Assembly (NCBI GenBank): GCA_963766735.1
Contig: CAVYBU010000010.1
Coordinates: 1-16,377 of the forward strand
Length of the DNA: 16,377 nucleotides
DNA from: an uncultured Chloroflexia bacterium
GTDB lineage: Bacteria; Chloroflexota; Limnocylindria; Limnocylindrales; CSP1-4
Direction: 5' to 3'
Shown here: one piece after another, positions 1 through 10,201 of the stretch
Position numbering within the stretch: the stretch's first letter is position 1
Layout: the number at the start of each line of letters is the position of its first letter
Translations under genes and position numbers: made by a program
Notes under the pieces: model-generated
What the model saw: only the letters and a program-made list of their open reading frames with translations
What the model was told of the DNA's origin: nothing
Databases searched by the model: none

Positions 1-572
1 AGGAACTCGGCGAGCTTCATGAACGCGGCCTTGATGGCGGTGTCGGCGTCCGGCTCTCCCTCCATGCCGAGCGCGGCGATGGTGACAATCTTCGAATCGC
101 CATCCGCGTGGATCTCGAAGATGGTGCTCGGCGCGTCGGCGACGAGCGGGTTCTGGTAGTCCTTCCGGGCCGCGGCGAGGCCACCCTCCGCCAGCGCGAA
201 CACGAGCAGGTCCTGGATCTGCGCCTCCGAGAGAGTGGCGGTGCGGACCGGGCTGCCCGTGATCACGTCATCGGCCGAGGGCGTGATCGTCGTCGAGTTG
301 CTGACGAACACGACGCGTCCGTCGCCGTAGAGCGTGAAGTACGGGACGTGGGCGGCAATCCACTCGACGGGCACGAAGCCGCCGGCCTCGTCGGCCCGCA
401 GGATGATCTCGTTGGGCCCGGTCGGGTGGGCCAGCCCTTCCGGAGTGGCCGTGGGCGGTGGCGTCGGGTCGGTGTCGGCGGGGCGCGCGGTGCCGGAGCC
501 CGTCGCGGTGCAGGCAGAGAGGGCGATCGCCAGGGTGAGGAGCGCGGCTGGGCGCCGCAGGCGGGTGGACAT
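1..572 (-). CDS. Putative lipoprotein, 3' end runs off the window
   Basis: Not in the ORF track. ATG at 572 reads MSTRLRRPAALLTLAIALSACTATGSG..., with a basic N-region, hydrophobic core and LSA-C lipobox, then a Pro/Thr linker and globular region (HPTGPNEIILRADEAGGFVP...FTLYGDGRVV). Open to the window edge. Confidence 0.8.
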   Translation of the reverse strand, partial: MSTRLRRPAALLTLAIALSACTATGSGTARPADTDPTPPPTATPEGLAHPTGPNEIILRADEAGGFVPVEWIAAHVPYFTLYGDGRVVFVSNSTTITPSADDVITGSPVRTATLSEAQIQDLLVFALAEGGLAAARKDYQNPLVADAPSTIFEIHADGDSKIVTIAALGMEGEPDADTAIKAAFMKLAEF

Positions 573-594
573 GTCGTCCGGGACGCGGGTCCGC

Positions 595-658
595 GCCGTG
601 CGGTTCCATCGCCGTTCGGTTCCATCGCCATTCGGCCCATCGCCGTTCGGCCCATCGC
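595..658. repeat. Imperfect tandem repeat, 4 units of 15-16 nt
   Basis: GCCGTGCGGTTCCATC (595-610), GCCGTTCGGTTCCATC (611-626), GCCATTCGGCCCATC (627-641), GCCGTTCGGCCCATC (642-656). Confidence 0.85.
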
Positions 659-722
659 GGGAGGCAGTCCAGTGGGGCGCTCCGTCGGTCAGGGCCCGCG
701 GACGCCCCGCCGCCGCGAAGCC

Positions 723-752
723 TATGCTGGCCACGACCCAACCACCAGGAGG
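723..752 (+). promoter_or_regulatory. Possible -10 box (TATGCT 723-728) and RBS (AGGAGG 747-752) for dodecin
   Basis: TAnnnT hexamer about 30 nt upstream of ATG 759, and a strong SD 6 nt before the ATG. Confidence 0.5.
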
Positions 753-758
753 AGCCCG

Positions 759-962
759 ATGGGCGTGATCATCATCCGGGAAATGGTCGGGACGAGCCCC
801 CGATCGTGGAGCGACGCCGCTCGCCAGGCCGTGGCGACCGCCTCGAAGACCGTGCGCAACATCCGCACGATCGAGGTGGTGAAATCGACCGCCCAGATCG
901 ACGACGGTGAGATCGTCGAGTACGAGGTCCAGCTCAAGATCGGCTTCGAGTACGAGGGCTGA
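759..962 (+). CDS. Dodecin family flavin-binding protein (67 aa)
   Basis: MGVIIIREMVGTSPRSWSDAARQAVATASKTVRNIRTIEVV...GEIVEYEVQLKIGF matches the dodecin pattern (E-x-V-G-x-S-x-x-S-W...A-x-K-T-(L/V)-R-N-I...Y-x-V-x-L-K-I-x-F). Good RBS. Confidence 0.92.
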   Translation: MGVIIIREMVGTSPRSWSDAARQAVATASKTVRNIRTIEVVKSTAQIDDGEIVEYEVQLKIGFEYEG

Positions 963-1281
963 TCCCAGATAAGTCGCGGGTGAGCGGCGCGCGGCACCAT
1001 GCCGCGCATGCCTGCGACGACCCATGGCTCCGACCGCCACGGAGCCAGATCCAACCACCCAGGGCCAACCGCCCGGGTTCCCGGGCACCCGCCGCTGGGC
1101 GGCCGGGTTGACGCTGCCGATCCCGCATCCCGTATCGTTCGCGCCATCAGACGGCGCCGCCACCGGCAGCAGTTCCCGGCCGAACCCGTCGACGTCAGGG
1201 CACGAGGGACATGCGCTGGTCGCGGTCGGGCCTGGGATCGCAGGTTCAATGCTGTTCGCGGGACCGATCGGGCGGCTGGGG

Positions 1282-4200
1282 ATGAACCCGCTGCCGATCC
1301 AGCCGGCGAAGATCCACCCGCCGCTGCTCCGCCACGATGTCCTCTCCCGAGAGCGCCTCAACGGCTGGCTGGACAACGCGGCGAACGGGCGCGTCGCGCT
1401 GGTCATCGCCGAGGCCGGGTTCGGCAAGACCACGTTCCTTGCGGACTGGGCGCGCCACACCCGACGCGCAACGGCGTGGTACCGCCTGGAACCGGATGAC
1501 CGGGACTGGCTCGCCTTCATCAGGCATCTGGTCGCAAGCGGCCGGGAGATCGACCCCGGGTTCGCTCCGGATACCTACGACCTGCTGGCCGCACTGGGGC
1601 CAGGTGGTCCGTCCAGGGATGACCTGATCGTCAGCGTCGCCCAGGAGATGGCCGAGCTCGCATCGTCGCTGCCCAACGGCCTGAGCCTCCTGTTCGACGA
1701 CTACCACTCCGTCGACGGCAGCCCCGAGACCGAGCCCGTCATGAAGGCCCTGGTCGATCGAACGGGACCCGAATTCTCCCTGGTCATCGCGTCCCGGGCG
1801 GCGCCATCGCTCGCCCTGGGCAGGCTGCGCGCCCGCGGCGCCCTCTCGCGGATCGACGGCGACGGCCTCTGTTTCGACGTCCCCGAGACGGAGCGCCTCT
1901 TCCGGGATGCCTACCACCAGCCCCTGGACGCGGACGTGGTGGTGGACCTGATCGCCCGGACGGAAGGCTGGGCCGCGCTCCTGTCGCTGGTCCACACGAG
2001 TATTGACGAAGAGCGGAACTCGGACGCCCGGACCCTTGTCGGCCAACTGAGTGCATCTCGGGGTGATCTGTACGACTTCCTCGCTGAGGAGGTTATCGAA
2101 GGCCTTCCGAGGAGACTCGAGGAGTTCGTGATTCGAGTCTCGATCCTGACGGCAGTTGCCCCGGAGCGCGCGGCTCTGGTCGATGCCGGACCCCGCACCG
2201 AGATTACGAGTCTCATTGAACAGGCCGAGGGACTTGGTCTTCTCATGAGGCCAGACCGTGATCAGCCTCACCGGTTCCATCCACTCGTCCGGGACTTCCT
2301 TCGATCACGCCTTGAAGATCAGGTAGGACTCCCGGAGATTAGGGCCCGGCATCGGGCGGTTGGCGCGGCTCTCGTCGGAGTCGACTGGGGTGCGGCCGCG
2401 TGGCACTTCGCCCAAGCGGGCGACTCGGACGAAGCCGGGCGTGTGATCGATGACGCGATACCAGAAATCATGGCGTCGGGTCAGTTCGATCTCGCAGTGC
2501 CCTACCTAGATGGTTCCGCTGGCGCGACTGATAGGCCTGGGGCGCTCGTTCTCCGGAGTCGTCTCGAGTTCGCCAGGGGGAATCTGGAGAGGGCGAAGGC
2601 CCTGGCGGAGTCCGCCATCCGCGAAAGCCGTGGAGGCAGTCTCGCTGGATCGAGTCTGCTCAACCTTGCCTCACTGCTAGGAGTTGCTGGCTCCGAGCAA
2701 TCCGCGGTCGAGTTCGCGAGGCAGGCCATGACGTGTGAACTCACACCCTCGCAGCAATTGATCGCCAAGGCCACCATCGCACTCAGGGAGGCTGCGGATG
2801 AGGGCGACCTCGAGGCGATCGCAGAAGACTTGCGGATCCTCGCCGCTCAGCAATCACATGATGGCCATCGGCGACACAGCGGGATCTCCAACCTCAACCT
2901 CGCCGCCGCCCTCCTTTGGATTGGCGATGCTCAAGGTTCGCTTGCAGCAGCCAATCGTGCCGACAGCGACCTCGCCGGATCTGCTGCAACAAGCGCGGAG
3001 CGCGTCGCAGCTCTCGCTGCCCGCGCTCGGGCATTCGCCCATTTGGGTCGCGTCGACGAGGCCGAGCGGATCCTGAACGCTGGCGGTTCACTGCCCTCTG
3101 CGCTCAGCCGAGATGAGGCGAGCGTCGAGTTGGCCTCGATCCTCAGCGATTTCGGTTCCGCCGAGAGTGCCGCTAGTGCTCTTGCCCGCATCGATCCAGA
3201 CCACCTGATCCCCGGCTTTCGCGCAATCTGGGTGATGGCGCGCGGCCACATCGCCATTCGGACGGGGGAAACCGACCTAATCGCGCAGATGTGCAAAGAA
3301 CTCTCCGAGGAACCGTGCCGCGACTGCGCCGGGAAGCTCCGGACCGAGTTGCTACGGGCACGATCAGCGATCGCCCTCGGATCCCAGGAGGCTGTTTCGA
3401 ACATACGGGAGCTCGGGAGGATTGCGGATGCACAGCGATCACGAGTTGGACGGCTGTGGGCGGATCTGCTCCTGAGCGTTGCGTGTCCGGGGCCCATCCA
3501 CGCGGAAGTGCTTCGAGTCGGCCCAGACGAGGGCTACTGTCTCTCGATGCTTGCCGACGAGCTCAGTCGCAATCTGCACCGAATGTCCGATGAAGCTAGA
3601 GCCCGTGTCGAGGCCGAGGCTCGGGTGGTGCCCGAGCGATGGCGAGAGGCACTTCGTCAGGCAACAGCTGAAGGAGGTCCCTCAAGCTCCGAGGGCGCAC
3701 GCCTACTTTCCGTCGTGGGATCCTCAGACGACGCCGACTACCTCCGATCGATCGCTTCGACGTGCAAGGCATTTCGGCCGTACGCGGTATCCATCACGCG
3801 AAGGCTCGCGCCTACTGTCTATGTCGAGGATCTGGGCGCGGTGCGAATCCGGCTGGGCGACTCGCAGGTCGTCCGAGTGCGGAGGAGGAAGGTTCTCGGG
3901 CTAGCGTGCTTTCTATCGTCGCGGCAGGGCATGGCCTCGACTCGGGATGAAGCACTCGACGCGCTCTGGCCGGAACTCGGGCCAGACACGGCAGCCAACT
4001 CGCTTCACCAGACCATCTTCTACCTGCGTCGCGTCTTTGAGCCTGGGTACCGCGAGGGCCTGAGCCCTGGGTACGTGGTCTTCGACGGCGAGGTCGTCAG
4101 CCTCAGTTCAGACTTGGTAGACAGTGCGAGTCGGCGATGCTGGAAGACCTTGGGCCAGTACTCCGCCGACAGCGAGGAGGGCGCGACTCGCCTTCTGCGG

Positions 4201-4521
4201 TTGTATCGGGGCAAGTACGCCCTCGATTTCGCCTATGAGGACTGGGCCTCGTCCTATCGAGAGAACCTGCACGCGGCAGTTCTGGCACGCGTGGAGGCAG
4301 CGATGGAGGCGAGTGCGTCGGCAGGCAGCACGGATGCTGCGATCGGGCTTGCCCATTCCCTGATGGCGATTGATCCCGCCGCTGATGGGATCGAACTGGC
4401 GTTGGTGAGGATCTACAAGTCGAGCAGACGACATGCCGCGGCTGCCGAGCAGTACGCACACTACGCCTCAGTCGTGCGCGATGAACTTGGCGCAGAGCCC
4501 CCGAGCTTCGATGAGATCTGA
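1282..4521 (+). CDS. MalT-like STAND ATPase / helical-repeat (TPR-like) / C-terminal wHTH-BTAD transcriptional regulator
   Basis: PAKIHPP...RERL, Walker A AEAGFGKTT, Walker B LLFDDYH, TEGWAA, LYDFLAEEV and RFHPLVRDFL are MalT-like. The C-terminal RDEALDALWPE...NSLHQTIFYLRRVFEP...LYRGKYALDFAYEDW...ELGAEP is SARP/BTAD-like. The start may be further upstream (in-frame ATGs at 1024 and 1249). Confidence 0.88.
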   Translation: MNPLPIQPAKIHPPLLRHDVLSRERLNGWLDNAANGRVALVIAEAGFGKTTFLADWARHTRRATAWYRLEPDDRDWLAFIRHLVASGREIDPGFAPDTYDLLAALGPGGPSRDDLIVSVAQEMAELASSLPNGLSLLFDDYHSVDGSPETEPVMKALVDRTGPEFSLVIASRAAPSLALGRLRARGALSRIDGDGLCFDVPETERLFRDAYHQPLDADVVVDLIARTEGWAALLSLVHTSIDEERNSDARTLVGQLSASRGDLYDFLAEEVIEGLPRRLEEFVIRVSILTAVAPERAALVDAGPRTEITSLIEQAEGLGLLMRPDRDQPHRFHPLVRDFLRSRLEDQVGLPEIRARHRAVGAALVGVDWGAAAWHFAQAGDSDEAGRVIDDAIPEIMASGQFDLAVPYLDGSAGATDRPGALVLRSRLEFARGNLERAKALAESAIRESRGGSLAGSSLLNLASLLGVAGSEQSAVEFARQAMTCELTPSQQLIAKATIALREAADEGDLEAIAEDLRILAAQQSHDGHRRHSGISNLNLAAALLWIGDAQGSLAAANRADSDLAGSAATSAERVAALAARARAFAHLGRVDEAERILNAGGSLPSALSRDEASVELASILSDFGSAESAASALARIDPDHLIPGFRAIWVMARGHIAIRTGETDLIAQMCKELSEEPCRDCAGKLRTELLRARSAIALGSQEAVSNIRELGRIADAQRSRVGRLWADLLLSVACPGPIHAEVLRVGPDEGYCLSMLADELSRNLHRMSDEARARVEAEARVVPERWREALRQATAEGGPSSSEGARLLSVVGSSDDADYLRSIASTCKAFRPYAVSITRRLAPTVYVEDLGAVRIRLGDSQVVRVRRRKVLGLACFLSSRQGMASTRDEALDALWPELGPDTAANSLHQTIFYLRRVFEPGYREGLSPGYVVFDGEVVSLSSDLVDSASRRCWKTLGQYSADSEEGATRLLRLYRGKYALDFAYEDWASSYRENLHAAVLARVEAAMEASASAGSTDAAIGLAHSLMAIDPAADGIELALVRIYKSSRRHAAAAEQYAHYASVVRDELGAEPPSFDEI

Positions 4522-4589
4522 CCCGAATTCTGGAATGGACCAGGCTGCGACGTGCCGAGCGGCCCGGTGGGCATAGGTAGGGTTGCGTA

Positions 4590-4619
4590 TTGACCGGTGT
4601 AGTCGGCCGTGCATATAGT
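4590..4619 (+). promoter_or_regulatory. sigma70/SigA-type promoter TTGACC-N18-TATAGT
   Basis: TTGACC at 4590-4595 and TATAGT at 4614-4619 each differ from consensus by one base. They lie directly upstream of the riboswitch. Confidence 0.7.
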
Positions 4620-4659
4620 CCGGCCCTGCACCAGTACTTTCGTACGGTGCACCAAGGAA

Positions 4660-4737
4660 ACGCTTGGACGCGCTGATGCCACCACCTGAAATGGGCACTT
4701 AGGGTGGAGGCGGAGCGAGTAGTGCAACCGACCGGCT
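4660..4737 (+). ncRNA. c-di-GMP-II riboswitch aptamer (Rfam RF01786-like)
   Basis: TTGGACGCGC-TGATG-CCACCACCTGAAA-TGGGCACTT-AGGGTGGAGGC-GGAG-CG-AGTAGTGCAACCGACC carries the class II hallmarks: kink-turn TGA.../GGAG, TGGGCACTT loop, pseudoknot GCACT (4695-4699)/AGTGC (4721-4725) and 3' GCAACCGACC. It lies upstream of a c-di-GMP phosphodiesterase gene. Confidence 0.9.
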
Positions 4738-4762
4738 TTCGAGTCAGGTCGGTTTTCGTGTT
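4726..4762 (+). terminator. Intrinsic terminator-like expression platform overlapping the aptamer 3' end
   Basis: AACCGACC-GGCT-TTCG-AGTC-A-GGTCGGTT stem with a UUCG loop, ending in a U-rich tract (TTTTCGTGTT). Confidence 0.75.
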
Positions 4763-4799
4763 CCTCGACAGGACACGGAGGCCGCAAGGAGGTACGAGC

Positions 4800-4832
4800 G
4801 TGGCACCGAGCAAGGGCCTCAAGGGCTGGTAG
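4800..4832 (+). CDS. Micro-ORF, 10 aa MAPSKGLKGW
   Basis: Near-perfect SD AAGGAGGT (4786-4793), 6 nt spacer, GTG start and TAG stop. The C-terminus LKGW mirrors LKGF of the next ORF. Confidence 0.6.
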   Translation: MAPSKGLKGW

Positions 4833-4858
4833 GACCAGGATCGCGGGAGGATCGACCG

Positions 4859-4948
4859 ATGAAGGATCGCCTCATGCGACTCCTGGCCACTCTCGGCGCA
4901 GTCGCCGCATTGGCGCTCGCCGGAGGCGCGTCGCTAAAGGGCTTCTAG
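4859..4948 (+). CDS. Small peptide precursor, 29 aa MKDRLMRLLATLGAVAALALAGGASLKGF (putative signalling peptide)
   Basis: SD GGGAGG (4845-4850) 8 nt before the ATG. It has a signal-peptide-like basic N-region and hydrophobic core, a small-residue GGA site and a short tail SLKGF. Confidence 0.8.
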   Translation: MKDRLMRLLATLGAVAALALAGGASLKGF

Positions 4949-4961
4949 AAGCAGGCAAGGG

Positions 4962-5033
4962 CCTCAGTACACAAGTCCTCTTCACCCGTTGTAGGTGGAA
5001 GGGGCTAGAGTCCCTACCGTTCGGGAACTGAGG
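4962..5033 (+). promoter_or_regulatory. Predicted three-way-junction RNA that pairs over the HD-GYP RBS
   Basis: CCTCAGT (4962-4968) pairs with ACTGAGG (5027-5033, includes the SD). Internal hairpins at 4974-5006 and TCCC/GGGA at 5011-5026. Confidence 0.45.
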
Positions 5034-5037
5034 ACGA

Positions 5038-6454
5038 ATGCCGACAAAGCTGAAGCTCTACATTATTGGAGTCGTGGCAACGAGCGCTATCGCGCTCGTT
5101 GCTACGACTCGTTTGATTCCAGTCGAGGACGGGATTGCCCTGACTGTCGCGCCGTTCGGAATCTCTCTCGACTCAGGCAGGCCTCGCATTCTGGTGTGCG
5201 GTGACCCTGATCGCGTCCGCGCTTCCCGTCCGAATGCCTCGCGGAACAATGGTAGGCGTTTCGATCGCGCCGCTGATTGCGGCCACGGTCCTGGGCGGTC
5301 CGACCGCCGGAGCCTGGGTCGCGCTCATCGGGACGACGGAGGTGCGTGAGCTGCGCGGCCGTGTTCCGTGGTACGGCTCGCTGGCCAACCACGCCGGGCT
5401 GATGATCCCCGCGATCGTGGCTGGCATGGTCATGCGCGTACTCGGCGTCCCGGGGAGCGAGGAGTACACGATCACCTTCATCGCGGCTCTGATCGGTGCG
5501 GCAGCCTTCTTCCTGGTCAACGCGACGCTCACCGCTGCTGCGGTGGCTCTCCAAACTGAGCAGCCATTTCGCAGCGTGTTGCTGGGCGACGCCAAGGTCT
5601 TCGCCACGAACCTCCTTGGGCTTGCCCCGCTCGCTTGGCTCATGGCCCAGATGTACGAGGTGGCTTGGTGGGCCAGCTCTGCTGTTCGCCGTTCCGCTCT
5701 ACACGACGCGGCTCGCCTACCACAACTTCATCGAGATGCGCGAGATGTTCACCCAGACCATCGGTGCGCTGGCAGAGGCCGTGGACAAACGCGACCCGTA
5801 CACCGAGCAAGCATTCGCGTCGGGTCAAGGAGATCGCGCGGCGACATCGGTCGGGTCATGCGCCTGGGGGAGAGTGACCTCGAGGCCCTGGAGTGGGGCG
5901 GCCTGCTCCACGACGTCGGCAAGATCGGCGTGCGGGACGCGGTGCTGCTCAAGCAGGACAAGCTCAACAAGGAGGAGCGGGCGCAGATGAACGCGCACCC
6001 GGTCCTCGGTGCGGAGATCATCGCGCCGGTGACGCGACTGTCCCGGGAGCTGCCGATCATCCGCCACCACCACGAGTGGTACAACGGCTCGGGGTACCCG
6101 GACCGGCTCATCGGGGACGAGATCCCGCTGCTGGCACGCATCCTTCACGTGGCGGACGCCTTCGAGGCGATGACCGCCGCCCGGCCGTACCGGATGACGC
6201 CGCTGACCTCGGAGCAGGCACTGGGCGAGCTGCGGAAGTTCGCCGGCGTCCAGTTCGATCCCAAGGTGGTGGACGCCTTCGTGAAGACGGACTGGGCCCA
6301 GGACGTGGCCGACCCGGGCCGGACGCTGCAGGCGCGACCGATCCCGCTGATCTCGCAGCACGCGAACCGGACTGCCAACGCCGTCTGCCACGCCCGACGC
6401 AACCTGAGCACTTCCGCCTCGCCGGAGCAGCCTCGGCGGCGGTCGCACTCGTAG
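5038..6454 (+). CDS. Membrane-anchored HD-GYP c-di-GMP phosphodiesterase with multi-TM N-terminal sensor region (frameshifted in this sequence)
   Basis: Joined across shifts at about 5180, 5675, 5810 and 5840: MPTKLKLYIIGVV...multiple TM helices...EMFTQTIGALAEAVDKRDPYT-HSRRV...LLHDVGKIG...HHHEWYNGSGYP...ADAFEAMTAARPYR...QFDPKVVDAF. The exact C-terminal end is uncertain. Confidence 0.9.
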
Positions 6455-6517: not shown

Positions 6518-8680
6518 ATGCTGATCGGCGGTATCACGCTCGGGCTGGTGCTCGGCCTGCTCCTGGGCGGGCGCCTGGAGAACCTGGCCAACATCCGTCT
6601 GCGCTTCCTGCCGCTGCTGTTCGTGGCGGTGATCCTCCGGTTTGCGACGGAAGCGCTGCTCGGGATGGGCGTCGAGGTCGTGGACGCGCTGCGTGTGCCG
6701 CTGCTCGGGGGCGCCTACGGGCTCCTGCTCTTCACTCTCTGGCACAACCGCTCGTACCCGGGCCTGGCGCTGGCGTTCGTCGGGATCGCGTCCAACACCC
6801 TGGTGATCGTGTGGAACGGAGGCTGGATGCCGGTGTGGCAACCCGCCTACGACGCGTCCGGGCTGGCGGGACCGCTCTACTCGCAGCTCCACTTCCCGAT
6901 CAGTGGCACCGGCGCCGAGTTCCTGCTCCACCTGGGCCCGCTGGCGGACGTCATCCCGTTCCCTATCCCGCCGCTGCAGAACGTCGCCTCGGTCGGTGAC
7001 CTGTTCCTGACGGCCGGCCTGGCGTTCTTCCTGTTCGCCACCCTGATGAGAACGCCGGCCGAGACGCAGACGGCGATCGACGAGGCGAAGACGGGTCGCT
7101 ACCTGGGCCTCGTCGGGCACGGCCCGCCTGCCGAGGCGTGGCGAGGCCGCGGGGGACGCGGCGGGCCTGGGCGTCCGCCCGGGAACCGGCCTGACGCCCG
7201 GCCTGCAGGAGGCCGCGGCCCTCGAACGCCCGCTGATGATGGGCGCCGGCGGCATCGGGCATGGCATCGCCGTCCGGGTCGCTCCATTGCGCCAGAGGGA
7301 GCCACCGCCGGAGCCGGAGTCGCGGCCACCACCGCCACCGCCTTCCCCGGTGGCATCGCTGTCCCCCGCCCGCGTCCTCGCCGGCGGGCGCTCGGCCCGC
7401 GCGTCCGCCGCCACCCGTACGTGCGCCTGGCGCTCAACGGCTCGTTCTCGGCGCTGTGGGTGGGCCAGGTGATCAGCCTGTTCGGGGATCGCGTCAACCA
7501 GATCGCCCTGGGCGCCTTCGTCTACGAGCTGACCGACTCGCCGTTCGCCGTGGCGCTGACCTTCTTCATGGGGACGATCCCCAACCTGGTCTTCTCGCCG
7601 ATCGCCGGGGCCTACGTGGACCGCTGGGACAAGAAGCAGGTGCTGGTGGTCTCGGACATCCTCCGGGCGGCGCTGACCCTGCTCGTGCCGGTGGCCGTCC
7701 TGATCAACGTCTGGCTGGCGTACCCGCTGGTCTTCCTGATCACGACGGTCTCGATCTTCTTCCGGCCGGCGCGAGTTGCGATCCTGCCGCGCCTGGTTCC
7801 CAAGCGGGACCTGCTCTCCGCCAACTCCGCGATGTGGGTGGGCGAGACGCTGGCCGACGTCATCAACTACCCGATCGCCGGCCTGTTCGTGGTCTTCCTG
7901 GCTGGATCGCTGCCGATCGCGTTCTGGTTCGATGCCGCCACCTACCTGGTCTCGGCCGCCCTGCTGGCCTCGATCGCGATGCCGCCGCTGGCCCGCCGAA
8001 TCCGCGGCACGGACGCCGCCGATGGTCCGGAGGGAGCGAACGAGGGCGAGGGCGGGACAGACTCCCAGACCTCGATCCTCACCGACATGAAGGTGGGATG
8101 GGCATTCCTCCGCCACGAGACCGTCCTGCTGGCGAACACGATCCAGGGGACGGCCGGCCAGTTCGCGGTCGGCATCGTCACGGTGTCCGCCATCATCCTG
8201 GCGAGGCAGATCACGGGTTCGGATGGCAACGAGTACCGCGCGACCTACGCGTTCATGGAGACGGCCATCGGCCTCGGCAACCTGATGGGCGGCTTCGCCC
8301 TGGGCATGGTGGCCACGCGTGTCCGCAAGGGGCGGCTGGTGATCGCCGCCTACACGGTCTTCGGCGTGCTGATCTTCCTGGTCGGCCTGACAGACTCGAT
8401 CCCGCTGATCCTGGGGCTGCTGTTCGGGGTCGGCGTGGCGAACATGGCGTTCGTCATCCCCAGCCAGACGATGTTCCAGGAGCGCACGCCGCCGGAGCTG
8501 ATGGGGCGCGTGGTCAGCCTCCGGTTTGCCCTCGTGTTCGGCGGTATGTCCGTGGCGATGGCCGTGGGCGGCCTCCTGGTGGGGGTCTTCGGGCCGAGCC
8601 CGGTGATCGCGGCGGCCGGGCTGCTGTCGATCGTCGCCGGCCTCGCGGGGCTGGGCGTCAAGGCGCTGCGGGAGGCGTGA
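6518..8680 (+). CDS. DUF5317 domain fused to an MFS transporter (MFS_3/DHA3-like)
   Basis: The N-terminal ~180 aa carry DUF5317 motifs (GGRLENL..IRLR, SNTLVIVWNGGWMPV, LADVIP...SVGD). The C-terminal part is MFS-like (LWVGQVISLFGD, AGAYVDRWDKKQVLVVSDILR, FQERTPPELMGRV). The linker at ~7120-7290 probably has compensating indels. Confidence 0.85.
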   Translation: MLIGGITLGLVLGLLLGGRLENLANIRLRFLPLLFVAVILRFATEALLGMGVEVVDALRVPLLGGAYGLLLFTLWHNRSYPGLALAFVGIASNTLVIVWNGGWMPVWQPAYDASGLAGPLYSQLHFPISGTGAEFLLHLGPLADVIPFPIPPLQNVASVGDLFLTAGLAFFLFATLMRTPAETQTAIDEAKTGRYLGLVGHGPPAEAWRGRGGRGGPGRPPGNRPDARPAGGRGPRTPADDGRRRHRAWHRRPGRSIAPEGATAGAGVAATTATAFPGGIAVPRPRPRRRALGPRVRRHPYVRLALNGSFSALWVGQVISLFGDRVNQIALGAFVYELTDSPFAVALTFFMGTIPNLVFSPIAGAYVDRWDKKQVLVVSDILRAALTLLVPVAVLINVWLAYPLVFLITTVSIFFRPARVAILPRLVPKRDLLSANSAMWVGETLADVINYPIAGLFVVFLAGSLPIAFWFDAATYLVSAALLASIAMPPLARRIRGTDAADGPEGANEGEGGTDSQTSILTDMKVGWAFLRHETVLLANTIQGTAGQFAVGIVTVSAIILARQITGSDGNEYRATYAFMETAIGLGNLMGGFALGMVATRVRKGRLVIAAYTVFGVLIFLVGLTDSIPLILGLLFGVGVANMAFVIPSQTMFQERTPPELMGRVVSLRFALVFGGMSVAMAVGGLLVGVFGPSPVIAAAGLLSIVAGLAGLGVKALREA

Positions 8681-8779: not shown

Positions 8780-9443
8780 ATGACCGACAACGAGCGCGAC
8801 CCGGAGGCCGTTGGCCCCGAGGGCGCGACGGACGAGACCGAGGCCGCGGACGACGCCGCCTCCGACACCGACGAGACGACTGCCGACGAGACGACTGCCG
8901 AGCGGGGCGGACGACGAGAGCGCGGACGACGCGGGCGAAAGCGCCGACGAGAGCGCCGACGGGGGTACGGACGACAACGTCGACGAGTGGGCCGCTGCCG
9001 TATCCACCGGCCCTGCCGCACCTGCCGCTGCTGCCGCCGGCACGACGGGGAAGCCGGCCCGCGGCCGGAAGGCCAAGGCGGCTGCACCTGCCGCGGCACC
9101 GACGATCTCCGAGCAGGCCGTCCACATCGGCGACCGCGCGTCCGCCTGGTTCGTGATCGTGACGATCGGCGTGTTCGTGGCGATCTTTGCCAGCGCGATG
9201 CTGTTCGGCAAGGGCGGCTTCGTGACTGACGTGCTGGCAACACCGACGCCGGTCGTGACGCCTGCTCCCGTTGTCACGCCGGCCCCGACCGCGGCACCGA
9301 CCGCGGCGCCTTCGACAGAAGCTACCGCGGCACCCACCGCAGCTCCCACGGCGGCGCCGAGCCCCAGCGAGTCGGTTGCTCCTTCTGCCAGCCCGGAACC
9401 GTCCCCCAGCGACGCCGCCTCGCCGAGTCCGTCGGCGAGCTAG
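8780..9443 (+). CDS. Hypothetical single-pass membrane protein with acidic N-terminus and Pro/Thr/Ala/Ser-rich C-terminal tail (frameshift ~8905)
   Basis: GAGGAG SD upstream and possible -10 TACACT at 8715-8720. [12 protein letters not shown]... joins the frame of the 8811..9443 ORF, giving TM segment [20 protein letters not shown] and then PTAA repeats. Confidence 0.7.
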
Positions 9444-9453
9444 CCCTCCGGCG

Positions 9454-10135
9454 ATGGACGAGCCCCGGGCGCGCACGAGCGAGGCCCGGGCGCGCACGAG
9501 CGAGGCCCGGGCGCGGATGGTCGCGGACCAGCTCCTCGGCCGCGACATCCGGGACGAGCGGGTCCTCAAGGCCATGGACACCGTCCCGCGGGAGGCGTTC
9601 GTGCCGGCGAAGGAACGCGACTATGCGTACCTCGATGGCCCGCTGGCGATCGGTGCCGGCCAGACGATCAGCCAGCCGTACATGGTGGCTCGTATGGCGG
9701 AGCTGCTCCACGTGGCGCGCGGCGACCGTGTCCTGGAGGTCGGTACCGGCTCCGGGTACGCCGCGGCGGTGCTGGCGGAGATCGGGCTGCCGCGTGACGA
9801 CGATCGAGCGGGAGCCGGGACTGGCGGCGGAGGCGCGCGCACGCCTGGCGGACCTGGGCTACGCGGACCGCGTGGACGTGCGCACGGGCGACGGGAGCCT
9901 GGGCCTGCCCGAGGAGGCACCGTGGGACGGCATCGTGGTGGCCGCGGCCGCCCCGGAGATCCCGGACGCCCTGCGCGAGCAGCTGGGCGACGGGCGGCGG
10001 CTGGTGATCCCGGTCGGATCGCGCCGGCAGCAGCAGCTCATGGTGGTGGAGCGGCACGGCGCCGAGTGGCAGGAGCACTCGGACGGGGCCTGCGTCTTCG
10101 TGCCGCTGATCGGCGGCGGGGGGTGGCAGCGGTGA
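9454..10135 (+). CDS. pcm: Protein-L-isoaspartate O-methyltransferase (frameshift ~9787)
   Basis: [48 protein letters not shown], then in the second frame [21 protein letters not shown]...GRRLVIPVG...CVFVPL. Confidence 0.93.
9464..9515 (+). repeat. 21-nt tandem repeat (~2.5 copies) at the pcm 5' end
   Basis: CCCGGGCGCGCACGAGCGAGG x2 plus CCCGGGCGCG, encoding RARTSEA repeats. Confidence 0.85.
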
Positions 10136-10201
10136 CGAGGTACCTCGCAGACGTGACCACGGGCCGGTGAACCGACCTTTCGGGAGCCGATCGCGCCCGG
10201 A

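Follow-up and report, generated by a model that had tools for sequence, protein, structure and literature searches.

A ten-codon ORF behind a c-di-GMP-II riboswitch in Limnocylindria, with a C-terminal tail that co-varies with that of a neighboring small ORF

The stretch of DNA analyzed here, which we call the window, is a 16,377-nucleotide (nt) contig (CAVYBU010000010.1) from an uncultured Chloroflexia bacterium, and our subject is a very short open reading frame (ORF) on it, the micro-ORF, which encodes the ten residues MAPSKGLKGW and lies downstream of a riboswitch for cyclic di-GMP (c-di-GMP). Comparison with relatives indicates that the micro-ORF is a real micro-gene, under peptide-level purifying selection in two families of Limnocylindria, and not a chance ORF. 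Its C-terminal tail changes together with that of a second small ORF of 29 codons (ORF2), and the reading that we tentatively favor is that the decapeptide is a translated, trans-acting, leaderless twin of the secreted ORF2 peptide, that the two share a partner, and that the decapeptide is probably exported by a transporter of the same operon. The operon runs from the riboswitch through the micro-ORF and ORF2 to an HD-GYP phosphodiesterase gene and a gene for a DUF5317 domain fused to a major facilitator superfamily (MFS) transporter (DUF5317-MFS), with a STAND/TPR/BTAD regulator upstream, and this arrangement is conserved in two families (f1 and f4) of the class Limnocylindria, Chloroflexota, a lineage that is abundant and uncultured in soil and sediment. 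Ten-codon genes escape annotation, and very few are known that have a working product; one that stands under a c-di-GMP riboswitch and ahead of a c-di-GMP-destroying enzyme may reveal a peptide input to second-messenger control.

Coding signature and spread of the micro-ORF

The original prediction, made from the letters of the window, described a strong Shine-Dalgarno (SD) sequence, AAGGAGGT, with a 6-nt spacer ahead of MAPSKGLKGW, and placed this ORF first after the riboswitch terminator. Both statements hold: the unit lies at 4786-4832, an RF01786 aptamer and a terminator-like hairpin stand upstream, and the micro-ORF is the first SD-led ORF 3' of them. Across the loci of the family, AGGAGG or GGAGG is found mostly 7 nt (range 4-9) 5' of the start. 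With ten residues and no hydrophobic stretch, the peptide has no signal sequence, and the export or processing signal of pheromone precursors is absent from it. An in-frame GTG 43 nt upstream would yield a 24-residue form; this start lacks an SD, falls within a hairpin, and stands in another frame in the near-duplicate of the locus on a second contig (C6) of the same genome.

In relatives, the micro-ORF was taken as whichever ORF follows the first SD 3' of the terminator, its sequence left unconstrained. The original prediction had put forward conservation of the SD-start-LKG[WF]-stop pattern as a check; defined in the manner given here, the unit of SD, start, short ORF, and stop is present in 116 of 135 unique genome loci as an ORF of 9-11 codons (102 with 10, 11 with 9, and 3 with 11), the other 19 having an ORF of another length (14) or none (5). 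An independent scan of metagenomes, for which all figures here and below refer to loci that are new and unique relative to the genome loci and are among the matches listed, found an ORF of 8-12 codons in 91 of 101 loci (85 with 10 codons, 3 with 9, 2 with 8, and 1 with 12); the remainder comprise four extended or expanded forms, two loci with no ORF, and four long or off-target cases. Counted by residues over 136 loci, the peptide has a length of 10 in 113, 9 in 16, and 8 in 2. In the second family, f4, all 7 of the 7 loci read carry an ORF of 8-9 codons ending in K-(G/S)-W (for example MREFTKGW, MARKVIKGW, MSREIIKSW, and MARQSVKGW), followed by ORF2 and the HD-GYP gene; the N-terminal half of the micro-ORF and the SD context differ between the families, and the ORF is still kept.

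Within the family, 221 of 401 genomes, from 37 of 49 genera, carry the leader DNA (4640-4960), and RF01786 is present in 75 of 151 genomes of the class, each of these two tallies counting two genomes flagged as unpublished. The riboswitch occurs in 37 of 44 genomes of f1 and 37 of 50 of f4, and was not found in f2 (0/6), f3 (0/49), or f5 (0/1). A scan of the window's own genome for GGAGG, 5-9 nt, a start, 6-8 more codons, and K-(G/A/P/S)-(W/F/Y)-stop gave two matches, this locus and its near-duplicate on C6.

The peptide pattern that emerges is M-x-P-E/D...K-(G/P/A/S)-(W/F/Y)-stop. Among 103 unique 10-codon sequences, Pro3 is encoded by CCG (53), CCC (25), CCT (5), and CCA (4), and Glu4 by GAA (32) and GAG (24), with the first two codon positions held in both. 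Numbering residues back from the stop, Lys occupies position -3 in 205 of 207 unfiltered ORFs (114/116 from genomes and 91/91 from metagenomes); position -2 is G, P, A, or S, where Ser is reached via both TCC and AGC and Gly is GGC in 69 of 77; and position -1 is W, F, or Y. The LKG[WF] ending that the original prediction proposed for homologs is therefore retained as K-(G/P/A/S)-(W/F/Y), while its Leu and Gly are not fixed, as in VFKGW and TLKPF. Starts are GTG in 111 and ATG in 25 of 136 loci, and stops are TAG in 113, TAA in 19, and TGA in 4, compared with 2048 TGA, 824 TAG, and 53 TAA among the long open frames of the window genome. The three or four middle codons form the most variable stretch of the leader, yet they are free of indels, and the spacer 3' of the stop is indel-rich. 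A small-ORF test on the relatives found that frame and length are kept, that synonymous sites vary more than nonsynonymous ones at the conserved residues, and that the SD and start remain at canonical spacing. Because synonymous variation is present, starts and stops are exchanged, and no pairing is conserved over the ORF, the conservation is that of a peptide, not of an RNA.

Tandem expansions show the same pattern. All seven are in frame, and each unit ends in K-(G/P)-(W/F); the units are 21, 27, 27, and 33 nt in the genome loci, with three further cases in metagenome contigs, and overall 21-33 nt. The expanded forms, which occur in several lineages, have 2-4 units and 17-37 residues (L170:1021-1131, L145, L217, L141/L079, L250, L283, and L290). 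Some of the copies are nucleotide-identical and hence, to judge from their sequences, recent. The suggestion that the micro-ORF is a remnant of a duplicated precursor can be rejected, since purifying selection on the peptide has kept the ORF in two families.

RNA libraries, in which DNA carry-over is possible, contain molecules that run across the terminator, the micro-ORF, and ORF2. Contigs from four metatranscriptome runs, belonging to four studies, cover 4638-4956, that is, from the riboswitch to just past ORF2; one contig of 289 nt spans 4666-4956 with 2 differences, and one of 151 nt spans 4779-4929 with 1 difference. Near-identical contigs of two runs stop at 4955/4956, in the variable spacer, and these are not transcript ends. 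RNA contigs are absent over 4560-4635 and past 4960.

Tail co-variation between the micro-ORF and ORF2

The pattern of substitution clearly marks ORF2 as a coding sequence. Across 102 unique tails, the ending L-A-G-G-A-S-L-(K/R)-G-F is retained while synonymous sites vary freely, all four codons being used at most Gly, Ala, and Ser positions. The exact ORF2 sequence of the window is on record as an unnamed called gene, and an Atlas look-up of a 32-residue ORF2 from the second family returned unnamed clusters at a score of 0.90 and nothing usable.

In the window, the micro-ORF ends in GLKGW and ORF2 in SLKGF, and the Leu codons differ, being CTC at 4818-4820 in the former and CTA at 4934-4936 in the latter. 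The original prediction had noted these endings and codons and had taken them as a hint of similarity at the protein level, a hint that is borne out much more strongly than the window alone could show, as ten identical tail types change together in the two ORFs with differing codons. The final five residues are the same in both ORFs at 27 of 218 loci (11/136 in genomes and 16/82 in metagenomes), whereas shuffled pairings average 0.58 identical tails for the genome loci and 0.93 for the metagenome loci, with a maximum of 5 in 20000 trials. The ten distinct identical tail types (SIKGF, SIKGW, SLKGF, SLKGW, SLKGY, SVKGF, SVKGW, TLKGF, TLKPF, and TLKPW) compare with 0.45 expected. These shuffle tests are inflated by the relatedness of the loci; countering this, each of the ten tail states needs at least one double change, and the result is replicated in an independent sample. 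The identical and jointly changing tails occur in a single portion of the tree, to which the second family belongs.

The co-variation can also be followed residue by residue. Of the 14 loci with T at -5 of ORF2, 13 also have T there in the micro-ORF, against an overall frequency of 17 in 218 micro-ORFs; of the 10 loci with I at -4 of ORF2, 9 show I in the micro-ORF as well; and the 8 loci with P at -2 of ORF2 carry P (5), V (2), or A (1) at that place in the micro-ORF, and in no case G. Further pairs include TLKIY with TLKVF and GLKSF with SLKSF. In 11 of 11 identical-tail loci checked, at least one synonymous codon difference separates the two tails, and in six of these 11, the micro-ORF encodes Ser at -5 by AGC and ORF2 by TCN. 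These synonymous differences exclude gene conversion, recent duplication, and constraint at the RNA level as causes of the identity. If both ORFs keep the same tail through such changes, they must, as far as sequence comparison can tell, answer to one common partner whose specificity drifts between lineages; tail tracking across at least ten tail sequences is hard to explain otherwise. Tail co-variation between adjoining micro-ORFs could thus be used more generally as evidence of micro-ORF function.

Two metagenome-assembled genomes (MAGs) each carry two cassettes, which may be paralogs or two binned strains. In G263 (L083/L084), the tail pairs are TLKPF/TLKPF and DLKGY/SLKGF, and in G014 (L228/L231), they are VFKGW/SLKGF and IIKGW/SIKGF.

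The gap from the micro-ORF stop to the ORF2 start is 2-32 nt in 98 loci and variable in sequence and length, and no other part of the leader is conserved less. A gap of 2-14 nt is seen in 31 of the 98 loci, and 15 of these 31 have no SD-like sequence for ORF2, so that ORF2 there must depend on ribosomes coming from the micro-ORF. Some short-gap lineages use TAG-GAG itself as the SD-like word for ORF2, which may explain the avoidance of TGA in the micro-ORF. The stop-codon bias was considered as proof of a termination mechanism and set aside, as it may be inherited and TAG-GAG doubles as the SD of ORF2.

Possible roles of the twin peptides and comparison with known systems

According to the reading that we favor, high c-di-GMP would allow the P1 helix of the aptamer to hold the 5' arm of the terminator, leading to read-through, and the SD and start of the micro-ORF, predicted to lie in an unpaired stretch right after a second hairpin, could then be loaded with ribosomes. 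Sequence comparison supports selection for the peptide M-x-P-E/D...K-(G/P/A/S)-(W/F/Y)-COOH and a tail that twins that of ORF2, with residue-by-residue co-evolution in several lineages. Both tails would then meet one common, lineage-tuned partner, as their co-evolution suggests, for which the outer face of the HD-GYP sensor domain and the DUF5317-MFS module are candidates. The weakest step is that the decapeptide would be a second, leaderless form of the same signal, leaving via the MFS of the operon while ORF2 leaves via Sec, and that high c-di-GMP would be reported or fed back through the peptides. Export is proposed because the micro-ORF has no signal sequence, because the operon constantly carries an exporter with a domain of unknown fold, and because the ORF2 tail is expected outside the membrane. 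Where the gap is 2-14 nt, translation of the micro-ORF would in part also serve to pass ribosomes to ORF2. A partial Mantel test of the variable positions of the micro-ORF against sensor loop 1 of the HD-GYP protein, given its core, yields r 0.13 (8/2000 permutations), and the same test yields r 0.07 for loop 2 (93/2000) and r 0.06 for ORF2 (295/2000), all of which are confounded by linkage.

Several observations weigh against this reading. Most lineages, the genus of the window included, share only the K/R-G-aromatic motif between the two tails, and the commonest pairing of last residues is W in the micro-ORF with F in ORF2 (138/218). Lys at -3 is invariant in the micro-ORF, whereas ORF2 has K 43, R 55, Q 3, and T 1 at that position, and this asymmetry is unaccounted for by a simple model of one and the same ligand. 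A free peptide of ten residues may be short-lived in the cytoplasm. From about alignment position 350 to the end, the two regulator alleles found in the MAG share only about 16-52% of residues in each 50-residue block, or roughly one third in total, with the peptides identical, and because the alleles diverge while both peptides stay the same, the variable sensor arm of the regulator appears to be a poor candidate for the tail receptor. When the micro-ORF is sought by its tail, 15 of the 135 unique loci come out with no intact short ORF (8 frameshift-like, 1 premature stop, 3 read-through, 1 cut contig, and 2 expansions); indel errors are evident in many long-read MAGs, and loss of the ORF and sequencing error are indistinguishable in these 15 loci. 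Finally, the RNA contigs can include contaminating DNA, and they are uninformative on strand and ends.

The original prediction had named a cytoplasmic ligand, an antagonist, and an MFS-exported variant as possibilities. All that speaks for a real peptide and for a shared partner applies equally to a decapeptide that stays inside the cell as a mimic or antagonist, competing with or replacing the ORF2 tail at a common site and thereby setting the threshold for the secreted signal; this site could be the cytoplasmic face of the HD-GYP protein or of the MFS, a tail-recognizing protease, or the repeat arm of the STAND regulator. The missing signal sequence and the constant presence of a TPR-repeat regulator next door are consistent with this, and W with a strict K in one tail and F with K/R in the other would fit two related and nonequivalent ligands. 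However, the positive-inside rule, applied by eye, places the ORF2 tail outside, at a site that a cytoplasmic peptide would miss, and the sensor arm of the regulator diverges within the MAG with no change of the peptides, and we consider a cytoplasmic mimic unlikely. A leader acting in cis, where translation itself is what matters, ribosomes shield the leader from Rho or RNases and pass to ORF2, and a nascent K-G-W slows termination, seems to us rather unlikely as the main explanation, even though it is partly supported by the short gaps (31/98 loci, 15 of them with no SD-like sequence); the original prediction did not include this role. It is favored by the position of the micro-ORF, which precedes all other ORFs behind the terminator, by its near-perfect SD at fixed spacing from the start, by TAG or TAA stops in 132 of 136 loci in a genome whose long frames are rich in TGA, by TAG-GAG as an SD-like word in the short-gap lineages, and by the 10-codon length held in f1; and mccA supplies a precedent, as ribosome binding to that 7-codon ORF can control termination and RNA stability (PMC4231749). 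Arrest systems, however, fix their geometry, whereas the distance here from the stop to the next element is 2-32 nt in the least conserved stretch of the leader. Moreover, the ribosome is the same in all lineages, and arrest gives no reason for joint changes at -5, -4, -2, and -1; with the ribosome ruled out as the common partner, a pure arrest peptide loses weight. Expanded forms shift or lose the N-terminal M-x-P-E and keep the tail unit, and coupling alone needs no conserved peptide.

Two further explanations appear far less probable. In a precursor resembling those of ribosomally synthesized and post-translationally modified peptides (RiPPs), a chemical modification would join or decorate the invariant Lys and the terminal Trp in the manner of streptide, a Lys-Trp cross-linked peptide, and the MFS would export the product. 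The near-invariance of Lys at -3 in the micro-ORF, where ORF2 tolerates Arg, would fit, as would the multi-unit forms, which resemble multi-core precursors, and an exporter within the operon. Against it, the window ORFs scanned include no match to a radical-SAM, ATP-grasp, YcaO, cyclase, or similar enzyme, and hence to no radical-SAM maturase of the streptide type, on a contig with indel errors where Pfam leaves most ORFs past 8.7 kb unmatched and where DUF5317 has no known fold; the conserved cassette consists of the HD-GYP and DUF5317-MFS genes only, and many lineages have F or Y at the end of the peptide. We regard such a product as improbable. Closest to being refuted is the view that there is no gene at all, the conservation belonging to the RNA as an expression platform or the ORF being a decaying duplicate of the 3' end of ORF2. 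The whole leader is conserved at the nucleotide level (79-89% identity within the genus), Gly at -2 is strongly biased toward GGC, and a few loci have a broken ORF, all of which would suit this view; yet the Pro3 and Glu4 codons are free at their third positions, loci differ in their start and stop codons, no pairing is conserved over the ORF, Ser at -5 is kept via both AGC and TCN, the ORF survives in two families, and every expansion is in frame.

Carried further, the favored leaderless-twin reading could extend to a c-di-GMP-gated dual-route module, with a bare 10-codon gene served by DUF5317-MFS, a Sec-dependent 29-residue precursor, and the tail of both read at the outer face of the HD-GYP protein. 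As part of the same joint reading, tail variants with pherotype-like co-evolution of tail and receptor would couple internal c-di-GMP to a diffusible, lineage-specific peptide. Both parts are possible, if doubtful. If true, this would be the first quorum-type peptide system in Chloroflexota and the first peptide signal under the direct control of a second-messenger riboswitch, with a gene among the smallest known to have a functional product. Such a dual-route signal would be categorically new; otherwise, the locus would be kin to tiny, directly translated peptide genes and to peptide signaling cassettes.

Among known systems, the mcc operon offers the closest comparison. It is a plasmid antibiotic operon in which MccC is an MFS pump and MccA, which ends in Asn, requires adenylation by MccB. 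Here, no MccB-type adenylyltransferase was found among the 25 window ORFs scanned, the C-terminus is W, F, or Y, and the micro-ORF sits in a chromosomal signaling cassette with a riboswitch, a twin ORF, and a phosphodiesterase, none of which the mcc operon has. According to two papers, mccA is a directly translated 7-codon gene of E. coli mccABCDE whose length, unlike much of its sequence, is evolutionarily conserved (PMC4231749, PMC6495379), and one of them states that ribosome binding to this ORF can control termination and RNA stability (PMC4231749). It shares with the micro-ORF a length of at most 10 codons, an SD of its own, a place as first cistron, the lack of a leader or signal sequence, and a conserved length, and by analogy the micro-ORF would work most like mccA, without belonging to its family.

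Other comparisons are more partial. Like the pheromone systems of Firmicutes, the cassette has a short functional C-terminal stretch of anchor and variable residues, an adjoining repeat-containing regulator, and variants between close relatives. Those systems (Phr/Rap, PapR/PlcR, SHP/Rgg, and agr) use precursors of 20-50 residues with an export or processing signal, whereas the micro-ORF has no export signal, two genes carry the same tail, a c-di-GMP riboswitch gates them, and the regulator is MalT-like and of the STAND type with a SARP-type tail, not RRNPP. An Opp importer or AgrB-like protease was not seen, though no search was aimed at either. Arrest and leader peptides such as TnaC, ErmCL, SecM, and MsrDL are, like the micro-ORF, very short ORFs in the 5' leader upstream of controllable genes, a Mef-like MFS lies downstream here as it does of the mef/msr leaders, and the micro-ORF does have a conserved K-(G/P/A/S)-(W/F/Y) directly before the stop, next to the peptidyl-transferase center where a ribosome would stall; it differs in the unfixed distance from the stop to the next element, with no conserved structure there, in the co-variation of its tail with a second ORF, and in its tandem unit expansions. 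As in other RF01786 operons, a full-length aptamer above the gathering score is combined with a terminator-type platform that competes with P1; the difference is that the first two genes here have 10 and 29 codons and the phosphodiesterase comes only third. A search of a limited collection of papers found no description of such a c-di-GMP-II/micro-ORF/HD-GYP operon and nothing on DUF5317, on c-di-GMP-II in Chloroflexi, on c-di-GMP in Limnocylindria, or on micropeptides tied to a c-di-GMP riboswitch. Among the matches listed for papers that combine c-di-GMP-II, HD-GYP, and riboswitches, none deals with such an operon to judge from its title and the opening of its abstract.

Leader RNA, operon genes, and source genome

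Features of the window and c-di-GMP-II-like motifs elsewhere in the same genome (G000; C2, C3, C7, and C8 are contigs)
Feature	Position	Strand	Basis or detail
STAND-type regulator, 1165 aa: MalT-like NTPase arm, TPR repeats, C-terminal winged-helix/BTAD	1024-4521	+	Pfam, NCBIfam
ATAGGTAGGGTT.CGTA	4572-4589, just 5' of the -35 hexamer	+	Near-invariant in 20 genus loci
Sigma-70-like promoter	4590-4619	+	TTGACC - 18 nt - TATAGT; consensus scan, 1 site vs 0.1 expected
c-di-GMP-II aptamer	4657-4740	+	RF01786, 59.5 bits vs gathering score 53.5, E 2.7e-11, model 1-84 full length
Terminator-like hairpin, then GGTTTT	about 4730-4756	+	Pattern scan
Second hairpin, GGUUUUCGUGUUCC...GGACACGGAGGCC	4751-4783	+	U-tract paired with GAGGCC; ends 3 nt before the micro-ORF SD
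Micro-ORF SD, AAGGAGGT	4786-4793	+	Spacer ACGAGC, 6 nt, then GTG at 4800
Micro-ORF, 33 nt	4800-4832	+	GTG, nine more codons, TAG at 4830-4832; MAPSKGLKGW
ORF2 SD, GGGAGGA	4845-4851	+	7 nt before ATG at 4859
ORF2, 29 aa, MKDRLMRLLATLGAVAALALAGGASLKGF	4859-4948	+	ATG at 4859, stop at 4946-4948; signal-peptide-like N-terminus (by eye), A-x-A, then GGASLKGF
Structured spacer, ORF2 to HD-GYP	4961-5033	+	CCUCAGU pairs with ACUGAGG; the latter contains the HD-GYP SD
Membrane-sensor HD-GYP c-di-GMP phosphodiesterase	5038-6454	+	HD_5 3.4e-34; frame split near 5160-5200
DUF5317 membrane domain fused to DHA3/Mef/EntS-like MFS	6518-8680	+	DUF5317 2.5e-22, MFS_1, MFS_3; TIGR00900 3.2e-59
Sub-threshold c-di-GMP-II-like motifs	C2:353897-353982, C8:11144-11226, C7:8174-8259, C7:5530-5616		
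Sub-threshold c-di-GMP-II-like motifs	C7:2913-2999, C3:312819-312903, C3:389397-389481, C8:345705-345790		

The leader of the operon is conserved well beyond the two small ORFs. In an alignment of 20 loci of the genus, the promoter region is almost unchanging, and the DNA 5' of the ATAGGTAGGGTT.CGTA element is unalignable, this element being likely a candidate operator for the neighboring regulator. The Rfam alignment shows that the 5' arm of the terminator-like hairpin overlaps the 3' strand of P1 of the aptamer at 4730-4740, and because of this overlap the riboswitch is inferred to be an ON switch. Across 108 unique leaders, the pairs of the terminator stem are retained in 104-108 and those of the second hairpin in 90-108, the latter with several pair types per position, and RNAalifold leaves the SD and the micro-ORF unpaired, with no conserved pairing across the micro-ORF. 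A search for a further RNA family in 4740-5060 gave only a chance-level CRISPR-DR20 match (E 1.6). Two antisense ORFs in the region, at 4103-4822 and 4461-4787, match no Pfam family.

Eight other RF01786-like motifs occur in the same genome below the gathering score (28.5-44.8 bits), are mutually similar, and look like a diverged class of the c-di-GMP-II type that may act on translation. Each ends 13-42 nt 5' of the start of a long gene; seven of these genes have a signal-peptide-like or lipoprotein-like N-terminus, the one behind C8:345705 being without it, and behind the motif at C3:389397, an 18-residue ORF comes first. A micro-ORF of the present type is absent behind all eight of these leaders. 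Several weak RF01786 matches per genome are seen in relatives as well. A metagenome contig (L292), which was excluded from the counts, has the pattern of riboswitch core and terminator followed by a 1569-residue ORF resembling a repeat-rich surface protein, an unrelated c-di-GMP-II operon.

The spacer between ORF2 and the HD-GYP gene, which contains a near-invariant GGGCUAGAGUCC, gave a single-sequence fold of -39.3 kcal/mol with z -1.52, and its stem is present in 18-19 of 20 genus sequences with no compensatory changes; no family-level consensus structure and no Rfam match were found for 4961-5033. On these grounds, a structure sequestering the SD of the HD-GYP gene is not counted as a finding. 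In the HD-GYP gene itself, the frame changes within 5140-5210 of the window, from that of the ATG at 5038 to that of 5201, and the C6 copy is uninterrupted; its intact product has HD_5 at 3.4e-35 and a weak match to MASE9 (23.8 bits, below the cut-off of 24.3). The window is contig C10 of a 35-contig MAG (G000; 93.85% complete, 4.22% contaminated, 3.6 Mb, 70.6% G+C), and C6:184974-197621 of the same MAG is its near-duplicate at 95-99% identity. The frame change and the 61-65 gaps that separate the two versions across 5.6 kb suggest assembly indels in the contig, and assembly error is as likely a cause of the HD-GYP frame change as mutation.

The upstream regulator matches BTAD (1.3e-10), TPR_19, AAA_16, and, weakly, Trans_reg_C in Pfam, and MalT in NCBIfam (3.6e-51 over residues 94-475); its C-terminal 400 residues were detected by tblastn in 121 of 178 loci. 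The alleles at 1024-4521 of the window and at G000:C6:185951-189490 are identical over alignment positions of about 100-350, and the DNA flanking them, with the leader from 4559 on, is 95-99% identical, which gives sharp mosaic boundaries inside the gene and at the promoter.

At the other end of the operon, the DUF5317-MFS gene is syntenic in 76 of 178 loci, which are those with enough downstream flank, and in f4 it lies 1.6-1.8 kb 3' of the riboswitch in 5 of 5 genomes checked. In the DUF5317 domain (6518-7117), R41, R59, W75, N77, R78, N100, G102, M104, P105, D144, P147, P149, S158, G160, and D161 are invariant in 22 sequences. Two invariant G-D motifs had raised the suspicion of a hidden peptidase, which is neither supported nor excluded: an AlphaFold2 model (pLDDT 80.2, pTM 0.72) gave no Foldseek match in the PDB at E <= 0.001, and Pfam shows nothing else in this region even at E 10. 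Most other long frames past 8.7 kb in the window have no Pfam match. A frame of 299 residues at 9271-10170 has a partial match to protein-L-isoaspartate O-methyltransferase over residues 92-171, and a dodecin domain stands at the end of the first open frame of the window (3-962).

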